DNA from: an uncultured virus (IMG/VR IMGVR_UViG_3300035701_006463)
Taxonomy: Duplodnaviria; Heunggongvirae; Uroviricota; Caudoviricetes
Length of the DNA: 64,000 bases
Reading direction: 5' to 3' (one strand)
Virus record (IMG/VR): IMGVR_UViG_3300035701_006463
Part shown: piece after piece, positions 31,392-63,380 of the stretch
How positions within the stretch are numbered: position 1 is the stretch's first letter
How the letters are laid out: each line of letters begins with the position of its first letter
The notes under the pieces: model-generated
What the model was told of the DNA's origin: nothing
Databases searched by the model: none
What the model saw: the letters and a program-made list of their open reading frames with translations, nothing else
Translations under genes and position numbers: made by a program

Positions 31392-32173
31392 TTAGATTCA
31401 CCTAATTTAGCCTTCAACCATTGTTCCGTGATCCAACAATTCACCAACATATTTGCTTCCTGATGCGTTTTAGGGCAAGGCACATTGAGGTAAGGTTGTA
31501 TTTCTCTCTCCCAGATGCTGGGGATCTCCCAGTTGATTCGCCCAGGAGTCTTGGGTTTTTCTAATACGAAGCTAGGGATAATTCCTTTATAGGCTTCCCT
31601 GAGGTTCTGTTTGTCGATGGGCGTATCATGTGGATCAATCCAGTAGGGGAGAGTCTTGTTTATATCCAAACGTAGGAAAGGTGTTTGTAAATTAAGGACA
31701 TAATGTTCAGCCAATATCATGTGAGTTGAAATACTCCACTCGATAGTCCCACCCCAGTATTCTTGATAGGTTCTCCGTGGGCGTTCCCAGTATCCACCGA
31801 AGTGTTCATCGGGCCCCTCACCGACGTAGATGTTCTGTCTTTTATCTTTATTCGCTGCTTTGTAAGCATAGCATGGCCAGAGGTTGAATCTGGGTTTATC
31901 TAAGATTGGCATAAGTTTCCTGAAAGTTTCAAGAATTCTATCGGCACGTATCTCGGTATGCCTTGATTCATAGTGTTTGGCTACTCTCCAAGCGTCCTCA
32001 AATTCGTTCTGTTCTGGGAGACCTACTGTGTAGGTGAATATCTGTTCCTCGGTTTTCTCGGTGAGGTGGTGTAGGAGGATCGTTGAGTCTAAACCGCCAC
32101 TGATGAGGACTGCGGGTTTAGATGTAGGTTGAACAGCATCACGGAGAAGATCGACGAGGTGTTTATTCGTCAT
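31388..32173 (-). CDS. Asparagine synthase-like ATP pyrophosphatase domain (glycan amidation?)
   Basis: ISGGLDST, GEGPDEHFGGY; no glutaminase domain. Confidence 0.8.
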   Translation of the reverse strand: MTNKHLVDLLRDAVQPTSKPAVLISGGLDSTILLHHLTEKTEEQIFTYTVGLPEQNEFEDAWRVAKHYESRHTEIRADRILETFRKLMPILDKPRFNLWPCYAYKAANKDKRQNIYVGEGPDEHFGGYWERPRRTYQEYWGGTIEWSISTHMILAEHYVLNLQTPFLRLDINKTLPYWIDPHDTPIDKQNLREAYKGIIPSFVLEKPKTPGRINWEIPSIWEREIQPYLNVPCPKTHQEANMLVNCWITEQWLKAKLGESK

Positions 32174-46153: not shown

Positions 46154-47593
46154 CTACTTAGATAAAGTCACATTTTTATATGGTAGTATTGGATTTTTAC
46201 CTTTAAACAATTCTTCTAATGTAATTATTTGGAGTCGTGGTATTGGTTGCCCAGCTCCAAAGAAATAAGTTACATCTTTTGGCTCTTCTGCAAAGCCTAA
46301 TGTTGATGCCTCAGTCCGCATCCCTATTGTTGGTTCTTCGAGAGTAATGAATATTCCAGCATATGCATTTTCTCTTTCTATAGTGCCACGAAAATCTCTT
46401 ATTGCACCAAGACTTATAGCTCCACCCTTGATTTGGACAACAACAGTTTGAGTTTGTTTACCATGCTCACCATAAAGGTATATTACACCGTCTACACCTT
46501 TGTCCGGGCTTCTTGGTCTAGCGCCAACCAGACTCAATGCCCAGTATTCGAATTGTTTTTTATTTTGGCTTGCTAGAAATTTAGCACTTTCTAGATCTTT
46601 AGGAACACCTTTTATTTCGATATTTAAATTTGGGAAATTTTGTTTAAGTCTACTTGTGATTAAGTTTATTGCTAAGTATGTTATGTCTATTCCAATCCAT
46701 TTTCTATTAAGTTTTTGTGCAGCTGCAACAGTTGTTCCACAACCACAGAAGGGATCAAGAACAACATCGCCTTCATTCGTGGACGTTTTGATTATTCGTT
46801 CTAATAGTGCCAAAGGTTTTTGTGTAGGATAACCTAGCCTTTCTTTTAACTCTCCTATATGCCAAGTTGGTCTTATATCGTCCCACCAATCACTTATCCT
46901 CTTCCCTTTTGTTTCGTCTAAATATTGCTTGTAACTACCTTTTCCTTTGGACTGAAGTTGATACAAACGCCCATCCTCATCCTTGTTCTTAAAGAAGGTG
47001 GAAACATAACTTGGGTTATACTCTCTAAATAAAATATTAAATTTGAATTTTTCACTTTTGGTATAAAATAATATAGTTTCATGTTTTCCCGGGAATACTC
47101 TAATTTTTGGATGTTCACGCCCACTATAACACCATATTATTTCATTTTTAAAATTTTTGGCCCCAAATATGGAATCCATCACAATTTTTAAATAATGACT
47201 GGCGGTTGGGTCGCAATGAAGATAAATTGAACCTGTATTTTTTAAAACTTTATGCATTTCCAATAATCTAACTGTCATCATAACCAAATATGCACTCATA
47301 TCATTTGTGCCCAAGAAATCGTGTAATGATTTTACTAATTGGCTCACTTTTTGTGGGACGTTTGAGTTCTCTATTAAGTAACGGTAGTTTATTTCCGTAT
47401 CCGTATCCCAGTGCCATGTATCTGTAAAGGCTTCTATTTGAGCTTGTGATTTCTCTCCCGAAGGCTCTTTATATAATATATTGTAGTTGGCATTCGAATT
47501 GAAAGGTGGGTCTAGATATATTAAATCAATGGATTCGTTTTCTATATATTTTTTTAATATTCCTAGGTTATCTCCATACCAAAGTGTATTCAT
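46154..47593 (-). CDS. DNA adenine methyltransferase fused to Mrr-like endonuclease domain
   Basis: YLDPPFNS, YPTQKP, LDPFCGCGTT; C-terminal DKGVDG...VQIKG. Confidence 0.88.
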   Translation of the reverse strand: MNTLWYGDNLGILKKYIENESIDLIYLDPPFNSNANYNILYKEPSGEKSQAQIEAFTDTWHWDTDTEINYRYLIENSNVPQKVSQLVKSLHDFLGTNDMSAYLVMMTVRLLEMHKVLKNTGSIYLHCDPTASHYLKIVMDSIFGAKNFKNEIIWCYSGREHPKIRVFPGKHETILFYTKSEKFKFNILFREYNPSYVSTFFKNKDEDGRLYQLQSKGKGSYKQYLDETKGKRISDWWDDIRPTWHIGELKERLGYPTQKPLALLERIIKTSTNEGDVVLDPFCGCGTTVAAAQKLNRKWIGIDITYLAINLITSRLKQNFPNLNIEIKGVPKDLESAKFLASQNKKQFEYWALSLVGARPRSPDKGVDGVIYLYGEHGKQTQTVVVQIKGGAISLGAIRDFRGTIERENAYAGIFITLEEPTIGMRTEASTLGFAEEPKDVTYFFGAGQPIPRLQIITLEELFKGKNPILPYKNVTLSK

Positions 47594-56267: not shown

Positions 56268-57251
56268 TTAACTACTACTTCCTAAACCTTTACTCAAAAT
56301 TGGACAAGGAGAAAGGTAGGGTACCAACCAGACAAATGCCAAAAAGGAGATTACCTGAACGATTGGATTCGAGCCCCTATTTGAATTCCCTTCAGCCTCA
56401 CCAAGTTTCTCGAACAGCCTTATCTTTACATCCTTCGATGCCGTCAACGATGGTATAGCTTCATATAACTCCTTGAACGCCACCCTAGAATCATAGTTCC
56501 CCTCCACATACGCCTTTTCAATTGTCGTCTTTGCGTCCTCGAATTTACCAGCTAACGCTTGATTCATTGCTAAAACATACATCCCAACTGATGACTGTAT
56601 GATTGCTATCGACTCCGGTGTGATCGTCTTATTCTCGCCGATCACCTTCTCCAAATCGTTTATAGCAGTCCTCAGGTCGCCGTTGGCCTTCTTTACCAAC
56701 AACTTGATACTATCAATGACCAGCTTCTTTTCCTCTTCCGAATTCGCATGTACTTGAACGCCTTCTGCCCGTATGATCTCGACTATCCTCTTCTCTATCA
56801 CGTCGTCGGGTATGCGTCGGAACCTGAATATTGCACAACGACTCTTTATGGCGTCTAGGAATCGCCACTCATCGTTGCCAGAAAGAATAAAGATCGAGTC
56901 AGTTGTCTCCATTATTCTGCGGAGTGCATGTTGGGCTGGATCTGTCATCATATCTGCTTCGTCTAAAAACAGTATCTGCTTCATTTTGTACTGTGCCTGT
57001 TTCTTGATCTCGTACCTGACATCGTCTATTCCTCTGGCGTCGCTAGCATTGTACTCTAAAATGGGTATGCCAGTGACACTGGAGATGACCAACGCTGCTG
57101 ACGTTTTCCCAACTCCAGCGGGTCCTGAGAATAACATGTGCGGAAGTGTCCACCCACGTTCAATCACCTTTTTTATAGTTTGTATGACCTTTTCTTGCCC
57201 GACAATATCTGCCCAAACTTTTGGGCGGTATTTTTCTACTAGTCTTGTCAA
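56268..57251 (-). CDS. rfcS: Replication factor C small subunit
   Basis: VEKYRP, GPAGVGKT, NASDARG, LDEAD, AQHALRR, SRC, GDLR. Confidence 0.95.
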   Translation of the reverse strand: MTRLVEKYRPKVWADIVGQEKVIQTIKKVIERGWTLPHMLFSGPAGVGKTSAALVISSVTGIPILEYNASDARGIDDVRYEIKKQAQYKMKQILFLDEADMMTDPAQHALRRIMETTDSIFILSGNDEWRFLDAIKSRCAIFRFRRIPDDVIEKRIVEIIRAEGVQVHANSEEEKKLVIDSIKLLVKKANGDLRTAINDLEKVIGENKTITPESIAIIQSSVGMYVLAMNQALAGKFEDAKTTIEKAYVEGNYDSRVAFKELYEAIPSLTASKDVKIRLFEKLGEAEGNSNRGSNPIVQVISFLAFVWLVPYLSPCPILSKGLGSSS

Positions 57252-58965: not shown

Positions 58966-58989
58966 CCCAATTCATGATATTATTATCAT

Positions 58990-59009
58990 AAATCTTATAT
59001 ATAAGATTT
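58990..59009. promoter_or_regulatory. Perfect 20-bp palindrome, bidirectional TATA between divergent operons
   Basis: AAATCTTATATATAAGATTT. Confidence 0.8.
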
Positions 59010-59015
59010 TAGGAT

Positions 59016-59966
59016 ATGATATTTGACTATATCATGTCATTAGAACAATACCCAGATTTCGTTCGTCAACCAATCGCACAGCTCACCCAACGTATGGGCA
59101 TATCAACCACCGAGGTCCTCACCATGTTCGAACGCGAACTGGAAAAAGCCAAAATAATGTCGTTGGAAAACTTTCCCAACGCCACCCCCCAGGAGCAGCT
59201 CGACATCCGTATGCGCTTCGCCATAGGTGTCGTTTGGCGCGACAACATCAACCTTCCGCCCCTCATATCGGCACAGCTCATTTTCGTCGGCCACGACGGC
59301 TTACAATCATCTGGCGCCGGTAAACCATACAGTAACATGTACTTCATCACCAATGAGCCGGGCACTGGCACCAAACTCATCCGCATGAGTGCAAAGGGCG
59401 GCTACGCAGAAGCCTACCGCTCGCTAGGGCTCTTTACCCGTTACGATGCACAGGTCGGCCGTTACAATACGGGCGACACACTACTCTTCGACTCGCGCGC
59501 TAGACTCTCCAACCCGACCCCTGTACCACTCTCTATTCGTCGTATGAACGAGTTATTGAGTATCCCCACGATCACGGTCGAACAGGCCAAAGACACCCCC
59601 TCCAGAACCCAATCCAGCGGCTTCATGATCGATACAGACTGGCGCTGCATATTCGGTTACTTCTCTGGTGAGCCGCGTGTCTTCGCCACCAAGAAAAACA
59701 AGGACATCCGTCGTGCCGTCTTCAACATCACGGATACATCAGTGAAGGAGAGTCCACACGTCGATGCACAGGGAAACATCGTGACGCCTGGCTTGACCGC
59801 TTGGGCTGCTCCAGAACATCTCGTGTACGATGAGCGCAGCTATTGTGCCTTTTATGGACCCATCCGTGTGATCAGGGACGTGGAAAAAGATATCGTTTCC
59901 GCTTCAATGAACACATTCCTCGTGCGTCCGATACTCACAACAGACAAAGGCGTGACTGAAGTATGA
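59016..59966 (+). CDS. Putative OB-fold ssDNA-binding protein
   Basis: Helical N-terminus and two beta-rich domains; inferred mainly from context. Confidence 0.45.
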   Translation: MIFDYIMSLEQYPDFVRQPIAQLTQRMGISTTEVLTMFERELEKAKIMSLENFPNATPQEQLDIRMRFAIGVVWRDNINLPPLISAQLIFVGHDGLQSSGAGKPYSNMYFITNEPGTGTKLIRMSAKGGYAEAYRSLGLFTRYDAQVGRYNTGDTLLFDSRARLSNPTPVPLSIRRMNELLSIPTITVEQAKDTPSRTQSSGFMIDTDWRCIFGYFSGEPRVFATKKNKDIRRAVFNITDTSVKESPHVDAQGNIVTPGLTAWAAPEHLVYDERSYCAFYGPIRVIRDVEKDIVSASMNTFLVRPILTTDKGVTEV

Positions 59967-61297
59967 GCATAGAAGACCTATTTGGTCCCACCCCCAAAAA
60001 GGAGCAGCCTCAACAGGTCACGCCCCCACAGGAAACACTTCCTTCACCAGTAGAAGAAATAGTAAAGAAAATCCTCGGCGCCCGGCCAAACCTGACCCGT
60101 GAGGCTGTTTTAAAGCTCATCGAGGAGGAGGTGGCGAAAGCAGCTGGCCTCCTCACCGTGGAAGGTGCTGCCCATCTTGTCCTAGCAAATCTTGATATTC
60201 AGGCTGAGGAGCAGCCACCAGTGCCTATACCCGAAACAAAGCCCCCTCTAATATCCACTCCGGTCACATCAACAGAGGACCTATTTTCTCATCCAGCTCC
60301 GCCGGCTGCGGTTGCTTCAGTGAGTGTAGGGGAACCACTATCTGAGCCGGAGGGAGAGCCCGTAGGAGATCAGGAAGCGCAGGAACCAGAGGCGGCAGTT
60401 GAAGCCGAGTTATTCACCGGCGTCTCTCCGGGGGAGGTTCGCCCAGTTAAACCACAGGTCGAGGCGACTCCACAGGCAACAGATGCGATCTTTGAATCGT
60501 CCAAAACGCGAACAGAACTTCCTAGGGCACCACTCCCAAGAATGCCCGATAAATTCGATACATCACCCGAAAAGACAGCGGAGAGTCGCACATTCCTATT
60601 TTACGGTGAAAAAGGAGACTCAAAGACCTTTTCTGCCCTATCATTCCCGGGAAGGCAGGACATCCTATCGTTCGACCACAAGACGGTCGCTGTTTGGGAG
60701 GAGTCCTTTAAACGGGATCCTAGGATAACTATCTACGATGCTATTCGTTACATGGACTACTCCTCTCCCGACGCTTGGTTAATGTCATCGGAGATCACGC
60801 TACAATACATCAATATTCTGCTAGACGAGATAAGAATCCGTAGTGACAAACCCGACTGGATAATCGTGGACGGCTTAGAAGAGTTCACAAAGATAGCCGA
60901 AATGGTCATGCGCTATCGTAACGGTATCCGCATGACGCAAGGTGTCGAATGGAGTTTCTGGAAAGAGCGTCGCTTATACTTGAAACAAATACACCTCAAA
61001 GCAATGGGCATAGCGAAACGTGGTCTAATCTACACAACATATCCAGGGAAGCTAGAGAAGGTCGTGGACGGTAAGATAGTCGAGTCCACAAAGGTGCCGC
61101 GTTGGGTTGATGTCGTAAAGGAGCAGACGGATGTTGTAATATTGGTTGAAAGTAAACAGACAAACGAAGGTAGAAGGTTCTATGCGACGATCGAATCGTC
61201 AAAATATGGACCGTTCCGTACTGGGCGTCGCGTGGACATAACTGTACCACCCGGACAAACGCCCAATGTTTATGATCTAATAGTGAAAGGAGGTTGA
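59963..61297 (+). CDS. AAA_24/Sak4-like ATPase with RPA-type N-terminal helical domain and acidic Pro-rich linker
   Basis: LTREAVLKLIEE...GLLTVEGAAHLV; YGEKGDSKT; IIVDG. Confidence 0.7.
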   Translation: MSIEDLFGPTPKKEQPQQVTPPQETLPSPVEEIVKKILGARPNLTREAVLKLIEEEVAKAAGLLTVEGAAHLVLANLDIQAEEQPPVPIPETKPPLISTPVTSTEDLFSHPAPPAAVASVSVGEPLSEPEGEPVGDQEAQEPEAAVEAELFTGVSPGEVRPVKPQVEATPQATDAIFESSKTRTELPRAPLPRMPDKFDTSPEKTAESRTFLFYGEKGDSKTFSALSFPGRQDILSFDHKTVAVWEESFKRDPRITIYDAIRYMDYSSPDAWLMSSEITLQYINILLDEIRIRSDKPDWIIVDGLEEFTKIAEMVMRYRNGIRMTQGVEWSFWKERRLYLKQIHLKAMGIAKRGLIYTTYPGKLEKVVDGKIVESTKVPRWVDVVKEQTDVVILVESKQTNEGRRFYATIESSKYGPFRTGRRVDITVPPGQTPNVYDLIVKGG

Positions 61298-61303
61298 TGA
61301 AAG

Positions 61304-62050
61304 ATGCTAAAATTTTCGACTGAGCCAAAACGCTTGATGGACATGATCCAGAAGTCGTTGATGAACAATGCACTGGTGGGCGCTACAGCTACGTTCACAC
61401 CAACAGGTGTCGTCGTTAGCGACTCCTCTAAGGGCACACTCGGAGCACACTGCACGTTTTCCCCACGCTACTTCAAGTCCTATGCTGTGGACCAAGATCA
61501 CGAGATACTACTAAACAAGGCTTTCTACGATGGACTCTCGGACCTGAGATTCAGTGGTGAAGATGAAGTCACCGTAGAGGTTGACTTCGCTGCAGAATGT
61601 TTCAAGGTGACATCCACCAAAGGACTCGATTGGAAACCAAAACTTTCAAAGGAAAGTGGAAAGAAGATTCCATTCCAGCTAAGGGAGACGCCCGGTGTGG
61701 GCATACTGCCGTTGGACCCTAGATCAGAACGTCAGATCCACAACCAGTTTGCCACGCTGGTCGATAACCTCAGTGTTCCAAAGGTCGAGAAGGTGTCCCT
61801 GCACGTCTCAGGGGGCAAACTAACACTCGAGCTGGACTACGATGGTCCGTTCGTGAAACCCATACCACTCGAATCGCCCAAAGTCAGGAAGATGGATACA
61901 GATGACATATCCACGATCTTTGTCGAACAGCTCAACAACATACTAGCCAACTTCAAGGGAGATGTCTTTATCACGACCTACGATAAAGTCGTCTTCTTCA
62001 CCCAGATAACGCCAGACTTCTCGATGATGTATTACGCGGCTACAACTTAG
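61304..62050 (+). CDS. Divergent PCNA-like sliding clamp
   Basis: 248 aa; ATFTPTGVVVSDS...FSPRYFKSY, C-terminal MYYAA; RFC genes nearby. Confidence 0.7.
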   Translation: MLKFSTEPKRLMDMIQKSLMNNALVGATATFTPTGVVVSDSSKGTLGAHCTFSPRYFKSYAVDQDHEILLNKAFYDGLSDLRFSGEDEVTVEVDFAAECFKVTSTKGLDWKPKLSKESGKKIPFQLRETPGVGILPLDPRSERQIHNQFATLVDNLSVPKVEKVSLHVSGGKLTLELDYDGPFVKPIPLESPKVRKMDTDDISTIFVEQLNNILANFKGDVFITTYDKVVFFTQITPDFSMMYYAATT

Positions 62051-62080
62051 GGGTTGATGAAACGATGTCACAGTTTGTCG

Positions 62081-62147
62081 CTCTTTTGTTTCCGGAGAAC
62101 CGGACTGATGAGGCAGCCACCAATGGTTGGCTGTCAGAAACAAAGAG
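62081..62147 (+). ncRNA. Type III hammerhead-like ribozyme (variant)
   Basis: CTCTTTTG-TT-TCCGG(AGAA)CCGGA-CTGATGA-GGCAGCCA..TGGCTGTC-A-GAAA-CAAAGAG. Confidence 0.72.
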
Positions 62148-62156
62148 GTTAAGAAT

Positions 62157-62540
62157 ATGTACAGGCTAAGGGTTCAGACCGATTTGGAAGCGGCTCACTT
62201 TCTGGAGGGCTACAAGGGGAGGTGTGCTAATCTACATGGCCACTCATGGGTGGTTGAGGTATTCGTGGTGGGTTCTGACTTAGACAAAGTTGGAATGTTA
62301 GTTGACTTCGGCAATATAAAGGGTGAACTGACAAAGGTAGTTGATAGGCTGGATCATACGCTTCTCAACGATATAAAGGAGATAGGCAATCCAACATCTG
62401 AGAATTTGGCTAAGTACATCTATGACTTCATGGGCTTCATGGTACCGGCACTACCTTCTGGGGTTGAGTTGGAGAAGGTGAGAATTTGGGAGACACCAAG
62501 AGCATGGTGTGAGTATTGTGGGGAGATGAGGAAGGTTTAG
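62157..62540 (+). CDS. queD: 6-carboxytetrahydropterin synthase
   Basis: AAHFL...CANLHGHSW, DFG, LDH, NPTSENLA, ETP. Confidence 0.93.
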   Translation: MYRLRVQTDLEAAHFLEGYKGRCANLHGHSWVVEVFVVGSDLDKVGMLVDFGNIKGELTKVVDRLDHTLLNDIKEIGNPTSENLAKYIYDFMGFMVPALPSGVELEKVRIWETPRAWCEYCGEMRKV

Positions 62541-62923
62541 TCAAGAAGGTGAGGAACATGTCTACACTTGAGGAGTTAATGAATAACTGCCCAAAAGGAC
62601 ATACTGCTATTTTTGTGCCTGAGGCACATATTATTTTCTATTATGATAGAGAAGGACATACTCAGAGGATCTTCGGTAGGGTTGATGGGGTTTATCAGGA
62701 AATTGACATGGATTTCAGAAGTATGTCTAAGAAGATAGCAGAGGGTATTAAGACTGAGGAGCTTGTTGAAGATGTTCTACGCACAATGCCTGTTCAAAGT
62801 CTCATAAAGGCAAAGGTGATACTCGCAGACGAGAAGACGAAAATTAGGGGTAAGCCCGGATGTTATGGTATTGTTCTTAGTGGAGCTAAGCAGCAGTTGA
62901 CGATAGACTTTAGGGGTGGGTAG
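62516..62923 (+). CDS. Hypothetical protein
   Basis: 135-aa ORF, start uncertain. Confidence 0.55.
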   Translation: MWGDEEGLVKKVRNMSTLEELMNNCPKGHTAIFVPEAHIIFYYDREGHTQRIFGRVDGVYQEIDMDFRSMSKKIAEGIKTEELVEDVLRTMPVQSLIKAKVILADEKTKIRGKPGCYGIVLSGAKQQLTIDFRGG

Positions 62924-63380
62924 CATGTTCACATGTTTGGATTGTGGTAGTGAGGATTTGTCACTGCTATGGCTTGGGCATGATGATGCCAAAGTTAAAT
63001 GCAAGTGTGGTTCTGAGTTTTATATTATGAGGTCAAAATCCTCAGTTAGAAAAGACATTTCGGCACATTGGGAATACTTCCCATCCTTTTTCAAATTGAT
63101 GATGGACGAAATGGACAGACACCAATCTGAGAGTGGTGATAGCTGGCTCACTGAGGATACTGTTGTGGTGAAGTCTCCAGCAGCAGCTCTTCGCCATATA
63201 CCCATGTCCAACCATCTTGTTAATTTACTAGACAAAGCATTCCATTCGTACATGGACCATGGCGGACCCGAGAAGTTGGAGGACATAGCTAATCTATGCG
63301 CCATGATTAGGCTTCGTGGTCTACTTAAGAGGGGAAGGTTGGGAGTGAGGTCCGAGGTTCAGAAGGAGTTGAAAGAATGA
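62916..63380 (+). CDS. Zn-ribbon plus MazG-like helical NTP pyrophosphatase-like domain
   Basis: CLDC..CKC; GDSW...EDIANLCAMI. Confidence 0.5.
   Translation: MGSMFTCLDCGSEDLSLLWLGHDDAKVKCKCGSEFYIMRSKSSVRKDISAHWEYFPSFFKLMMDEMDRHQSESGDSWLTEDTVVVKSPAAALRHIPMSNHLVNLLDKAFHSYMDHGGPEKLEDIANLCAMIRLRGLLKRGRLGVRSEVQKELKE

Follow-up and report, generated by a model that had tools for sequence, protein, structure and literature searches.

A hammerhead-like RNA motif with an extra core nucleotide in a strain-variable gap between a PCNA-like clamp gene and queD of an uncultured tailed virus

We analyzed a stretch of 64,000 nucleotides from an uncultured virus (hereafter the window), with a focus on a short gap between a sliding clamp gene and queD near its end. 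The genes from position 59016 onward are co-directional, and they either overlap or lie 6-17 nt apart. This co-directional block starts after an AT-rich palindrome that separates divergent gene blocks. The only sizeable gap in the tightly packed operon is the 106-nt segment 62051-62156, in which no promoter-like or terminator-like site was found. The main features of the locus are the following:

61304..62050, + strand: PCNA-like sliding clamp gene, 248 aa, directly upstream of the motif segment (open reading frame and Atlas structure)
62051..62156, + strand: strain-variable segment of 106 nt from the clamp stop codon to the queD ATG, holding the whole motif (contigs X2 and X5 versus X4 and X6)
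62052-62062, + strand: 11-mer GGTTGATGAAA, an exact copy of 61292-61302, before the clamp ATG
62065..62169, + strand: possible 34-codon open reading frame P0084, ATG 62065 to TAA, overlapping the queD start by 13 nt
62144-62149, + strand: Shine-Dalgarno-like AGAGGU of queD, 7 nt before the ATG, with 4 bases inside stem III of the motif
62157..62540, + strand: queD, 6-carboxytetrahydropterin synthase family, 127 aa (PF01242, E 9.1e-37; phrog_2389, QueD-like)

The two flanking genes had been named PCNA-like and queD in a first-pass annotation of the sequence, and both names stand, the former by structure alignment and the latter by the PF01242 match. The 248-aa clamp protein has no match in sequence searches of Pfam and the PDB, and an AF2 model of it made here is poor (pLDDT 34). 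The ESM Atlas model of an identical protein aligns to archaeal PCNA clusters with a TM score of 0.83-0.84 over approximately 234 residues, and it is on this alignment that the name rests. Relatives of the QueD protein align from residue 1 and share the same MYRL start; therefore, the queD start was placed at 62157. Motifs resembling GAGGT or GGAGG are also found upstream of other genes in the window and upstream of QueD relatives.

Among the other proteins encoded in the window are NrdD, an RFC-type clamp loader, methyltransferases and many glycosyltransferases. Among isolates, the RFC-like clamp loader matches haloarchaeal tailed viruses best (33% identity, E 1e-37), as compared with E-values of 1e-14 to 1e-20 for bacterial phages. 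Based on this affinity, the source is likely an uncultured tailed virus of archaea. The DNA was found in six sequencing runs, all of which are sediment DNA metagenomes.

The first-pass annotation had read the gap as a type III hammerhead ribozyme. Every element of that layout lies on the + strand within 62081-62147 where it had been placed, in the order stem III strand, GUU, stem I hairpin, CUGAUGA, stem II, extra A, GAAA and stem III strand. The parts are as follows:

62081-62088, + strand: 5' strand of stem III, CTCTTTTG (RNA CUCUUUUG), followed by UU
62081-62089, + strand: 5' strand of stem III including U16.1, CUCUUUUGU, pairing with 62140-62147
62088-62090, + strand: cleavage triplet GTT (GUU)
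62090, + strand: position 17 (U), with the predicted cut 3' of this U
62091-62095 and 62100-62104, + strand: stem I hairpin of 5 bp, TCCGG and CCGGA, with the 4-nt loop AGAA
62105-62111, + strand: core strand CUGAUGA (C3 to A9), directly after CCGGA
62112-62119, + strand: 5' strand of stem II, GGCAGCCA
between the strands of stem II, + strand: stem II loop, CCAAUGGU
62128-62135, + strand: 3' strand of stem II, TGGCTGTC (RNA UGGCUGUC)
62136, + strand: extra A between C11.1 and G12, present in other assemblies too
62137-62140, + strand: GAAA (G12, A13, A14 and A15.1)
62141-62147, + strand: 3' strand of stem III, CAAAGAG, followed by GGUUAAGAAU and the queD ATG at 62157

All 11 conserved core bases are present, as is the G10.1-C11.1 pair. 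The A15.1-U16.1 pair is formed by A62140 and U62089, and position 17 is a base other than G (U62090). Stem II has 8 bp including one G-U pair (62112-62135) and can be extended to about 10 bp, and stem III has 6 pairs without interruption, which become 8 to 9 if one U is bulged. Stems I and II are thus closed by loops and stem III is open (5, 8 and 6 uninterrupted pairs, respectively). The GUU triplet and the cut predicted 3' of 62090 were correctly positioned in the earlier reading, and the overlap of stem III with the queD ribosome-binding site that it described is likewise present, since CAAAGAG (62141-62147) shares bases with GAGGT (62145-62149). The departure from the consensus that it reported was confirmed as well: in a type III core the G12-A13-A14 bases directly follow C11.1, and here A62136 intervenes between C62135 and G62137. 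By inspection, this extra A cannot be removed by re-registering stem II. It is not an assembly error, because the contigs of two other samples span A62136 with no indel reported and because proteins that start at TTG 62127 in further assemblies stay in frame through it.

A type III descriptor applied to both strands of the window recovered this single site, and did so only if a base inserted ahead of GAAA was permitted; no canonical type III site is present in the window on either strand. The word CTGATGA occurs 11 times on the two strands of the window, and one of these words, at 62105, lies in a hammerhead context. No further copy of the motif was found elsewhere in the 64 kb.

The Rfam hammerhead models had been pointed to as a check on the ribozyme reading, and the whole window has no match at the gathering score. 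At E<=1 the window has two Rfam matches, neither of which is a hammerhead. When the 72 bases 62079-62150 were scanned alone, Hammerhead_3 was the best Rfam family and aligned end to end, although its 19.8 bits fall short of the gathering score (48.5). The alignment passes over stem II as a local insert; thus, what contributes to the score is limited to the two core strands plus stems I and III. The E-value of this match is 0.02 for 72 bases and 4227 families, which becomes approximately 0.004 when rescaled to one family over the window. In the longer region 61950-62300 the sole member of the clan shown was Hammerhead_II (15.3 bits, gathering score 37). This type II reading was rejected, as stem II would consist of a G-U followed by a G-A and stem III would be poor. 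A C/D-box sRNA reading (sR38, 11.2-11.6 bits) was also rejected, since it lacks box D and its spacing is wrong. Riboswitches for preQ1 are often located upstream of que genes. None of classes I-III was detected at E<=10 in 61950-62300, nor at the gathering score in the window.

The minimum-energy fold of the region has -27.7 kcal/mol (z -2.87), and 2 of 200 shuffled sequences are as stable. It is a compact three-way junction in which stems I and III are kept and stem II is re-registered into a 13-bp imperfect hairpin (62105-62137). In the competing helix, CUGAU 62105-62109 pairs with GUCAG 62133-62137, and the extra A62136 pairs with U62106. Constraining the core to be unpaired yields the hammerhead fold with its three stems intact at -25.8 kcal/mol, i.e., 1.9 kcal/mol above the minimum and 2.5% of the secondary-structure ensemble. 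Removal of the extra A in silico raises the share of the hammerhead fold to 9% of the ensemble. Taken together, the constrained fold and the A removal suggest that the hammerhead fold is accessible yet not favored, and that the extra A makes the competitor. The opposite strand folds comparably (z -2.83), as expected from inverted repeats of any sort.

To estimate how often such a motif arises by chance, we simulated 62 Mb of first-order Markov sequence and searched both strands with a descriptor that tolerates a single inserted base at any core position. The numbers of matches were 628 for minimum stems I/II/III of >=3/3/3 bp, 34 for >=4/4/4, one for >=5/5/5 and none for >=5/8/6. The chance rate per 64-kb window is approximately 1e-5 to 4e-5, whether extrapolated by pairing probabilities or calculated analytically from the individual parts. 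For one window a chance origin is improbable; a scan of about 250,000 windows should contain a handful of equally good motifs by chance. The chance figure for the sense strand of the 106-nt stretch itself is far lower than the per-window value.

For comparison, we sampled hammerheads in viral contigs using a canonical pattern (CTGATGAG, a gap and CGAAAC; at least 130 matches) and an extra-A pattern (CTGATGAG, a gap and CAGAAAC; at least 124 matches). Three stems of at least 3 bp in type I/III topology were found in 47 of the 130 canonical-pattern matches listed, and three such stems in 5 of the 124 extra-A matches listed. Two of these five candidates (L008 and L104) are canonical hammerheads that carry a second AGAAAC after the real GAAAC, and the other three have minimal stems and very large loops and are chance-like. 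Therefore, none of the 124 extra-A matches listed is a convincing extra-A hammerhead. Stem II lengths peak at 4-5 bp with a maximum of 7 bp among the canonical matches listed (n=130), whereas the window motif has 8-10 bp; among the extra-A matches listed they show the geometric fall-off expected by chance. The cleavage triplets of the 45 well-stemmed canonical cases among the matches listed are GUC (39), GUA (5) and GUU (1).

Type III geometry among the matches listed is mostly a 7-bp stem I with a 4-nt loop and a 4-bp stem II with a 4-nt loop. The window motif is the reverse, its stem I (5 bp) being shorter than its stem II (8-10 bp). A contact between the loops of stems I and II is needed for hammerhead activity at physiological Mg2+. 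Given the 5-bp stem I and the 8-10 bp stem II, the usual loop-loop contact is unlikely to form in the window motif. Scaling by random-match rates suggests that the extra-A sample corresponds to the sequence of about 270 canonical hammerheads, which would place the extra-A variant below approximately 1% of viral hammerheads. The canonical matches listed further point to about one hammerhead with a closed stem II per 8 Mb of viral contig.

The closest known family is the type III hammerhead (RF00008, clan CL00010), with which the motif shares the order of parts, G10.1-C11.1, A15.1-U16.1 and a base other than G at position 17. It differs by the extra A between C11.1 and G12, U17, a stem II of 8-10 bp, a stem I of 5 bp and a score of 19.8 versus 48.5 bits. 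The CChMVd (+) hammerhead has an unpaired base where stem II meets the core, on the 5' strand and between A9 and G10.1. That hammerhead is active with its unpaired base (PMC2632901), and Penelope-like-element hammerheads are active with a base between positions 9 and 10.1 (PMC4209133). These systems resemble the window motif in having a single unpaired nucleotide between stem II and the core. The base is on the 5' strand (A9/G10.1) in the Penelope-like elements, whereas in the window motif it is on the 3' strand, just before the general base G12.

Other natural core insertions are described by Perreault et al. 2011 (PMC3088659), namely A6a, U13a and 2a/2b; activity is often low and some variants are inactive. 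The same study describes HHphage of haloviruses HF1 and HF2, a core-insertion hammerhead located 13 nt upstream of a start codon, for which the mapped 5' end of the transcript is no more than 3 nt away from the cleavage site (PMC3088659). The two cases are alike in their source, an archaeal tailed virus (inferred for the window), a core insertion and a polycistronic transcript (an early one in HF1/HF2), and they also sit at similar places, 13 nt (HHphage) and 9 nt (window motif) upstream of the start codon. The HF1/HF2 insertion comprises two bases (2a and 2b) next to C3 and stem I, whereas the window has one A next to G12; the haloviruses are from hypersaline habitats, and the window is from sediment.

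Clustered hammerheads of phages and prophages flank single genes and often lie beside small non-conserved ORFs (PMC3088659; PMC6155905). The window motif is similar to these in being intergenic and located on the sense strand of a long phage transcript. However, the clusters described there usually comprise several copies that fit the family model, unlike the one sub-threshold copy in the 64-kb window. The de la Pena 2017 review (PMC6155905) states that searches with a relaxed core mostly yielded false positives. Among the papers found on hammerhead C11.1 insertions, none describes a base between C11.1 and G12, and among those listed on hammerheads, archaeal viruses and queuosine no link between a hammerhead and a que gene was found.

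Strain variation was assessed over 61000-63000 using contigs of four other sediment samples (X2, X4, X5 and X6). The X4 contig carries the segment of the window with no differences over 62021-62248, and the X6 contig carries it with four differences over 61982-62312; no indel was reported in either. In the X2 and X5 contigs, 62050 is joined to 62157 by 194 other letters, so that the 106-nt segment is replaced. The contigs that encode P0001 and P0090, including a JGI contig of 39,872 bp, have this other allele too. The flanking genes of X2 and X5 differ from those of the window by approximately 4% (30 letters in 731), i.e., these are strains of about 96% identity. Members of the QueD protein cluster likewise show two spacer ends and are mosaics. 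P0089 and P0091 read from TTG 62127 through the window-type spacer end, and P0090 and P0092 have the other spacer end, with MEMKD or MKD before MYRL. P0091 is of the window type up to QueD codon 43 and of the variant type beyond it. As a recombinant with the window-type haplotype, it gives no independent evidence of conservation, and it was thus ruled out as a sign that the motif is conserved.

In a library of 1.84 billion representatives, 83 relatives of the clamp protein were found at E<=0.001, and a word-indexed search gave two; P0002-P0008 are relatives of 40-48% identity. Scans of viral contigs with the clamp protein, the 444-aa neighbor, P0002 and P0003 found no relative; the scan with QueD found one locus of 40% identity, the upstream region of which is unrelated. 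The motif string is absent from the viral contigs searched. Neither the clamp alignment A1 against metagenome contigs and genome contigs nor the motif pattern against genome contigs gave a match, and there was none in GenBank phages by blastn of the locus or tblastn of the clamp protein. Among 23 metagenome loci with QueD relatives (34-57% identity), none has the segment or any of six neighboring proteins, and Rfam found no match on the 20 of these loci that were scanned. In the five closest loci, queD lies approximately 11 to 30 nt behind another gene. The absence of the element from the loci of QueD relatives indicates that there is no general link between queD and hammerheads.

The gap may also be coding. 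The start of P0084 lies 14 nt past the clamp stop codon and is preceded by AGGGGUUGAUGAAACG, with AGGGGU 10 nt upstream, which is a gene-like start context. The codon log-odds of P0084 is 0.108, against 0.233 (sd 0.143) for chunks of real genes and -0.094 (sd 0.156) for open off-frames; it is below 18% of the real-gene chunks and above 91% of the open off-frames. No homologue was found: the exact sequence is absent from a collection of 15 billion proteins, and the search returned neither a word-sharing candidate of 22-72 aa nor a usable Atlas match. P0084 is thus a possible but unsupported gene. If it is real, the motif lies within coding sequence and its 'intergenic' position loses evidential force. 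Gene calls in the protein collection often extend QueD to TTG 62127, which uses the same DNA as P0084.

The ribozyme reading of the first-pass annotation thus holds in its anatomy, in the sense-strand position in the gap and in the overlap with the ribosome-binding site. Its functional part, self-cleavage, is not supported by any computation here, and the Rfam result, the atypical features, the strains and the QueD relatives all speak against it. The processing of the polycistron and the control of QueD translation proposed there would both require such cleavage. The several departures from the family and the absence from close strains make a weak, dead or coincidental look-alike more likely than a working ribozyme. 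On balance, we lean slightly towards an inactive look-alike or a hammerhead relic, located in variable filler that supplies the translation signals of queD. The data show the anatomy, the poor fit to the family model, the atypical features and the presence or absence of the segment among strains; the inactivity of the motif and any translation of the small ORF are inferred.

According to this preferred reading, the clamp gene and queD would be separated by either of two exchangeable filler sequences in a population that recombines, and the 106 nt would be one of them. The filler would carry the ribosome-binding site and start context of queD, and it may also code for a peptide of 34 residues whose frame extends 13 nt into queD. 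Its RNA is predicted to fold into two hairpins, 62091-62104 and 62105-62137, closed by the helix 62081-62089/62140-62147. It can be speculated that, in the polycistronic message, this fold makes the ribosome-binding site of queD slightly less accessible, with no scission of the strand. Within the same reading, the element may alternatively be a former hammerhead that now has disabling features.

Several observations weigh against inactivity. Chance is very unlikely to produce a three-stem layout of 5, 8 and 6-8 bp, the full core is present, the hammerhead-competent fold is only 1.9 kcal/mol above the minimum, and the region is more structured than shuffled sequences. The position is typical of phage hammerheads, on the sense strand of a polycistronic operon and 9 nt before a start codon. 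Activity is known for natural hammerheads that carry core insertions or an unpaired base next to stem II (PMC3088659, PMC2632901, PMC4209133). The small ORF that the preferred reading invokes has no homologue, and its codon statistics are intermediate.

These observations would be accommodated by a working variant of the type III hammerhead, probably slow or conformationally gated, which we regard as a tentative and rather doubtful alternative. The polycistron would cut itself after U62090; the 5' strand of stem III would stay on the clamp message, and the message of queD would begin at 62091 with a 5'-OH, its ribosome-binding site (4 bases in stem III) being freed. A62136 would be bulged at the foot of stem II, and the CUGAU/GUCAG helix would keep a fraction of the molecules inactive. 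Such a variant has in its favor the consensus core with three good stems, a chance expectation of about 1e-5 per window, the top, if sub-threshold, rank of Hammerhead_3 among Rfam families on the stretch, and a competent fold within 1.9 kcal/mol of the minimum. It is also in line with the polycistronic context of a gap that has no promoter-like or terminator-like site and with the fixation of the extra A in several assemblies. Among isolates, the clamp loader is closest to those of haloarchaeal tailed viruses, the group for which hammerheads with a core insertion shortly ahead of a start codon are described (PMC3088659), and natural hammerheads tolerate a single unpaired base where stem II meets the core, on the 5' strand of that stem (PMC2632901, PMC4209133).

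Against the working hammerhead stand the score of 19.8 bits versus the gathering score of 48.5, the segment's absence from sister strains and the ORF with a gene-like start context that covers the motif. In addition, no precedent for the base between C11.1 and G12 was found in the literature searched or among the 124 viral-contig matches listed, U17 is rare (1 of 45 among the matches listed), and the length of stem II and the geometry of stems I and II are atypical. The prior is very low both for a chance origin and for a true hammerhead that combines three independent rarities. Combining hammerhead density, the three rarities, the chance rate, the sense-strand position in the gap and the ORF, we obtained odds of an active ribozyme between a few percent and about one half, and the width of this range mainly depends on whether the three rarities are independent.

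A bolder version of the same idea, in which an archaeal-virus hammerhead with an undescribed C11.1/G12 nucleotide would toggle between locked and cutting forms, free the queD ribosome-binding site and travel on a strain-variable cassette, appears unlikely. The weakest explanation is some other structured RNA, i.e., a protein-binding or endonuclease-processing site or an operator masking the queD ribosome-binding site in which the hammerhead-like words are incidental; its fold beats shuffles (z -2.87, 2 of 200 as good), with a compact three-way junction, the 13-bp imperfect hairpin 62105-62137 and a closing helix that overlaps the ribosome-binding site, but it is quite improbable, as no Rfam family fits (preQ1 included), the window has no second copy, it is missing from sister strains and QueD relatives, and the opposite strand is equally foldable (z -2.83).

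If the motif did cut, the hammerhead core would gain a new tolerated insertion site, adjoining the general base G12. The motif would then be a second archaeal-virus hammerhead variant just upstream of a start codon, after that of HF1/HF2, and would tie a ribozyme to a DNA-modification gene (7-deazaguanine pathway). If it does not cut, which we think likelier, it offers a caution that a three-stem motif complete on paper can depart from the natural family in several independent respects, and that single-copy sub-threshold hammerhead calls need comparative or bench support.

A minor feature of the gap is the 11-mer GGTTGATGAAA, which has exactly two exact copies in the window, before the clamp ATG and before that of P0084. 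With at most one mismatch allowed, it has 7 matches against 1.93 expected, a number reached in 0 of 100 shuffles.

The gap between the stop codon of the PCNA-like gene and the start codon of queD (62051-62156) occurs as two alleles in the population, and contigs of other samples show that it is swapped in its entirety. In contigs of two other samples, the stop codon and the start codon are the same, with 194 different nucleotides in between. Among members of the QueD cluster, the queD body and the end of the spacer are combined as mosaics. Judged from these sequences, the two alleles and the mosaic cluster members together identify the gap as a recombination hot spot. Two smaller features involve the same region:

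61292-61302 and 62052-62062, exact copies of the 11-mer GGTTGATGAAA
62065-62169 (+), possible ORF P0084 of 34 codons, overlapping the queD start by 13 nt

The 11-mer has only these two exact copies within the 64 kb window. They flank the PCNA-like gene, each stands shortly ahead of an ATG, and the pair may be the trace of a gene-cassette insertion that left the translation-initiation region duplicated. For P0084, the start context is gene-like, the codon statistics are intermediate, and no homologue was found.

Two further observations concern parts of the hammerhead layout, one elsewhere in the window and one in an IMG/VR viral contig (L062). The former is a hairpin:

32088-32125 (+), hairpin with arms of 10 to 11 nt, TCTAAACCGC / GCGGGTTTAGA

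Its loop contains the core word CTGATGA, and the remaining hammerhead parts are absent there. The minus strand of L062 carries a hammerhead-like arrangement of type I, in which stem II is GGGG/CCCC and an A separates stem II from GAAA, as in the motif upstream of queD. Because U16.1 and the cleavage position H17 are missing between stem III and stem I, the L062 arrangement is probably degenerate or coincidental.

The remaining features concern the virus type and its gene content:

56268-57251 (-), RFC-type clamp loader gene
7210-31391, large sugar-modification block inside the virus-like window
46154-47593 (-), N6/N4 DNA methyltransferase fused with an Mrr-type restriction endonuclease-like domain
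58977-59022, AT-rich palindrome with 23-nt arms between divergent gene blocks

The top isolate matches of the clamp loader are the haloarchaeal tailed viruses HVTV-1, HCTV-5 and HCTV-1 (33% identity, E 1e-37), with bacterial phages far behind. Taken together with the PCNA-like clamp, these similarities point to an archaeal tailed virus living in sediment. The products of the sugar-modification block include a DegT-type aminotransferase, a GFO/IDH/MocA oxidoreductase, an NAD epimerase/dehydratase, at least five glycosyltransferases and a methyltransferase fused with a WbmS-like deacetylase. The methyltransferase-Mrr fusion combines PF01555 with PF04471/PF22722. Finally, the palindrome is likely a divergent promoter or an origin-like region.
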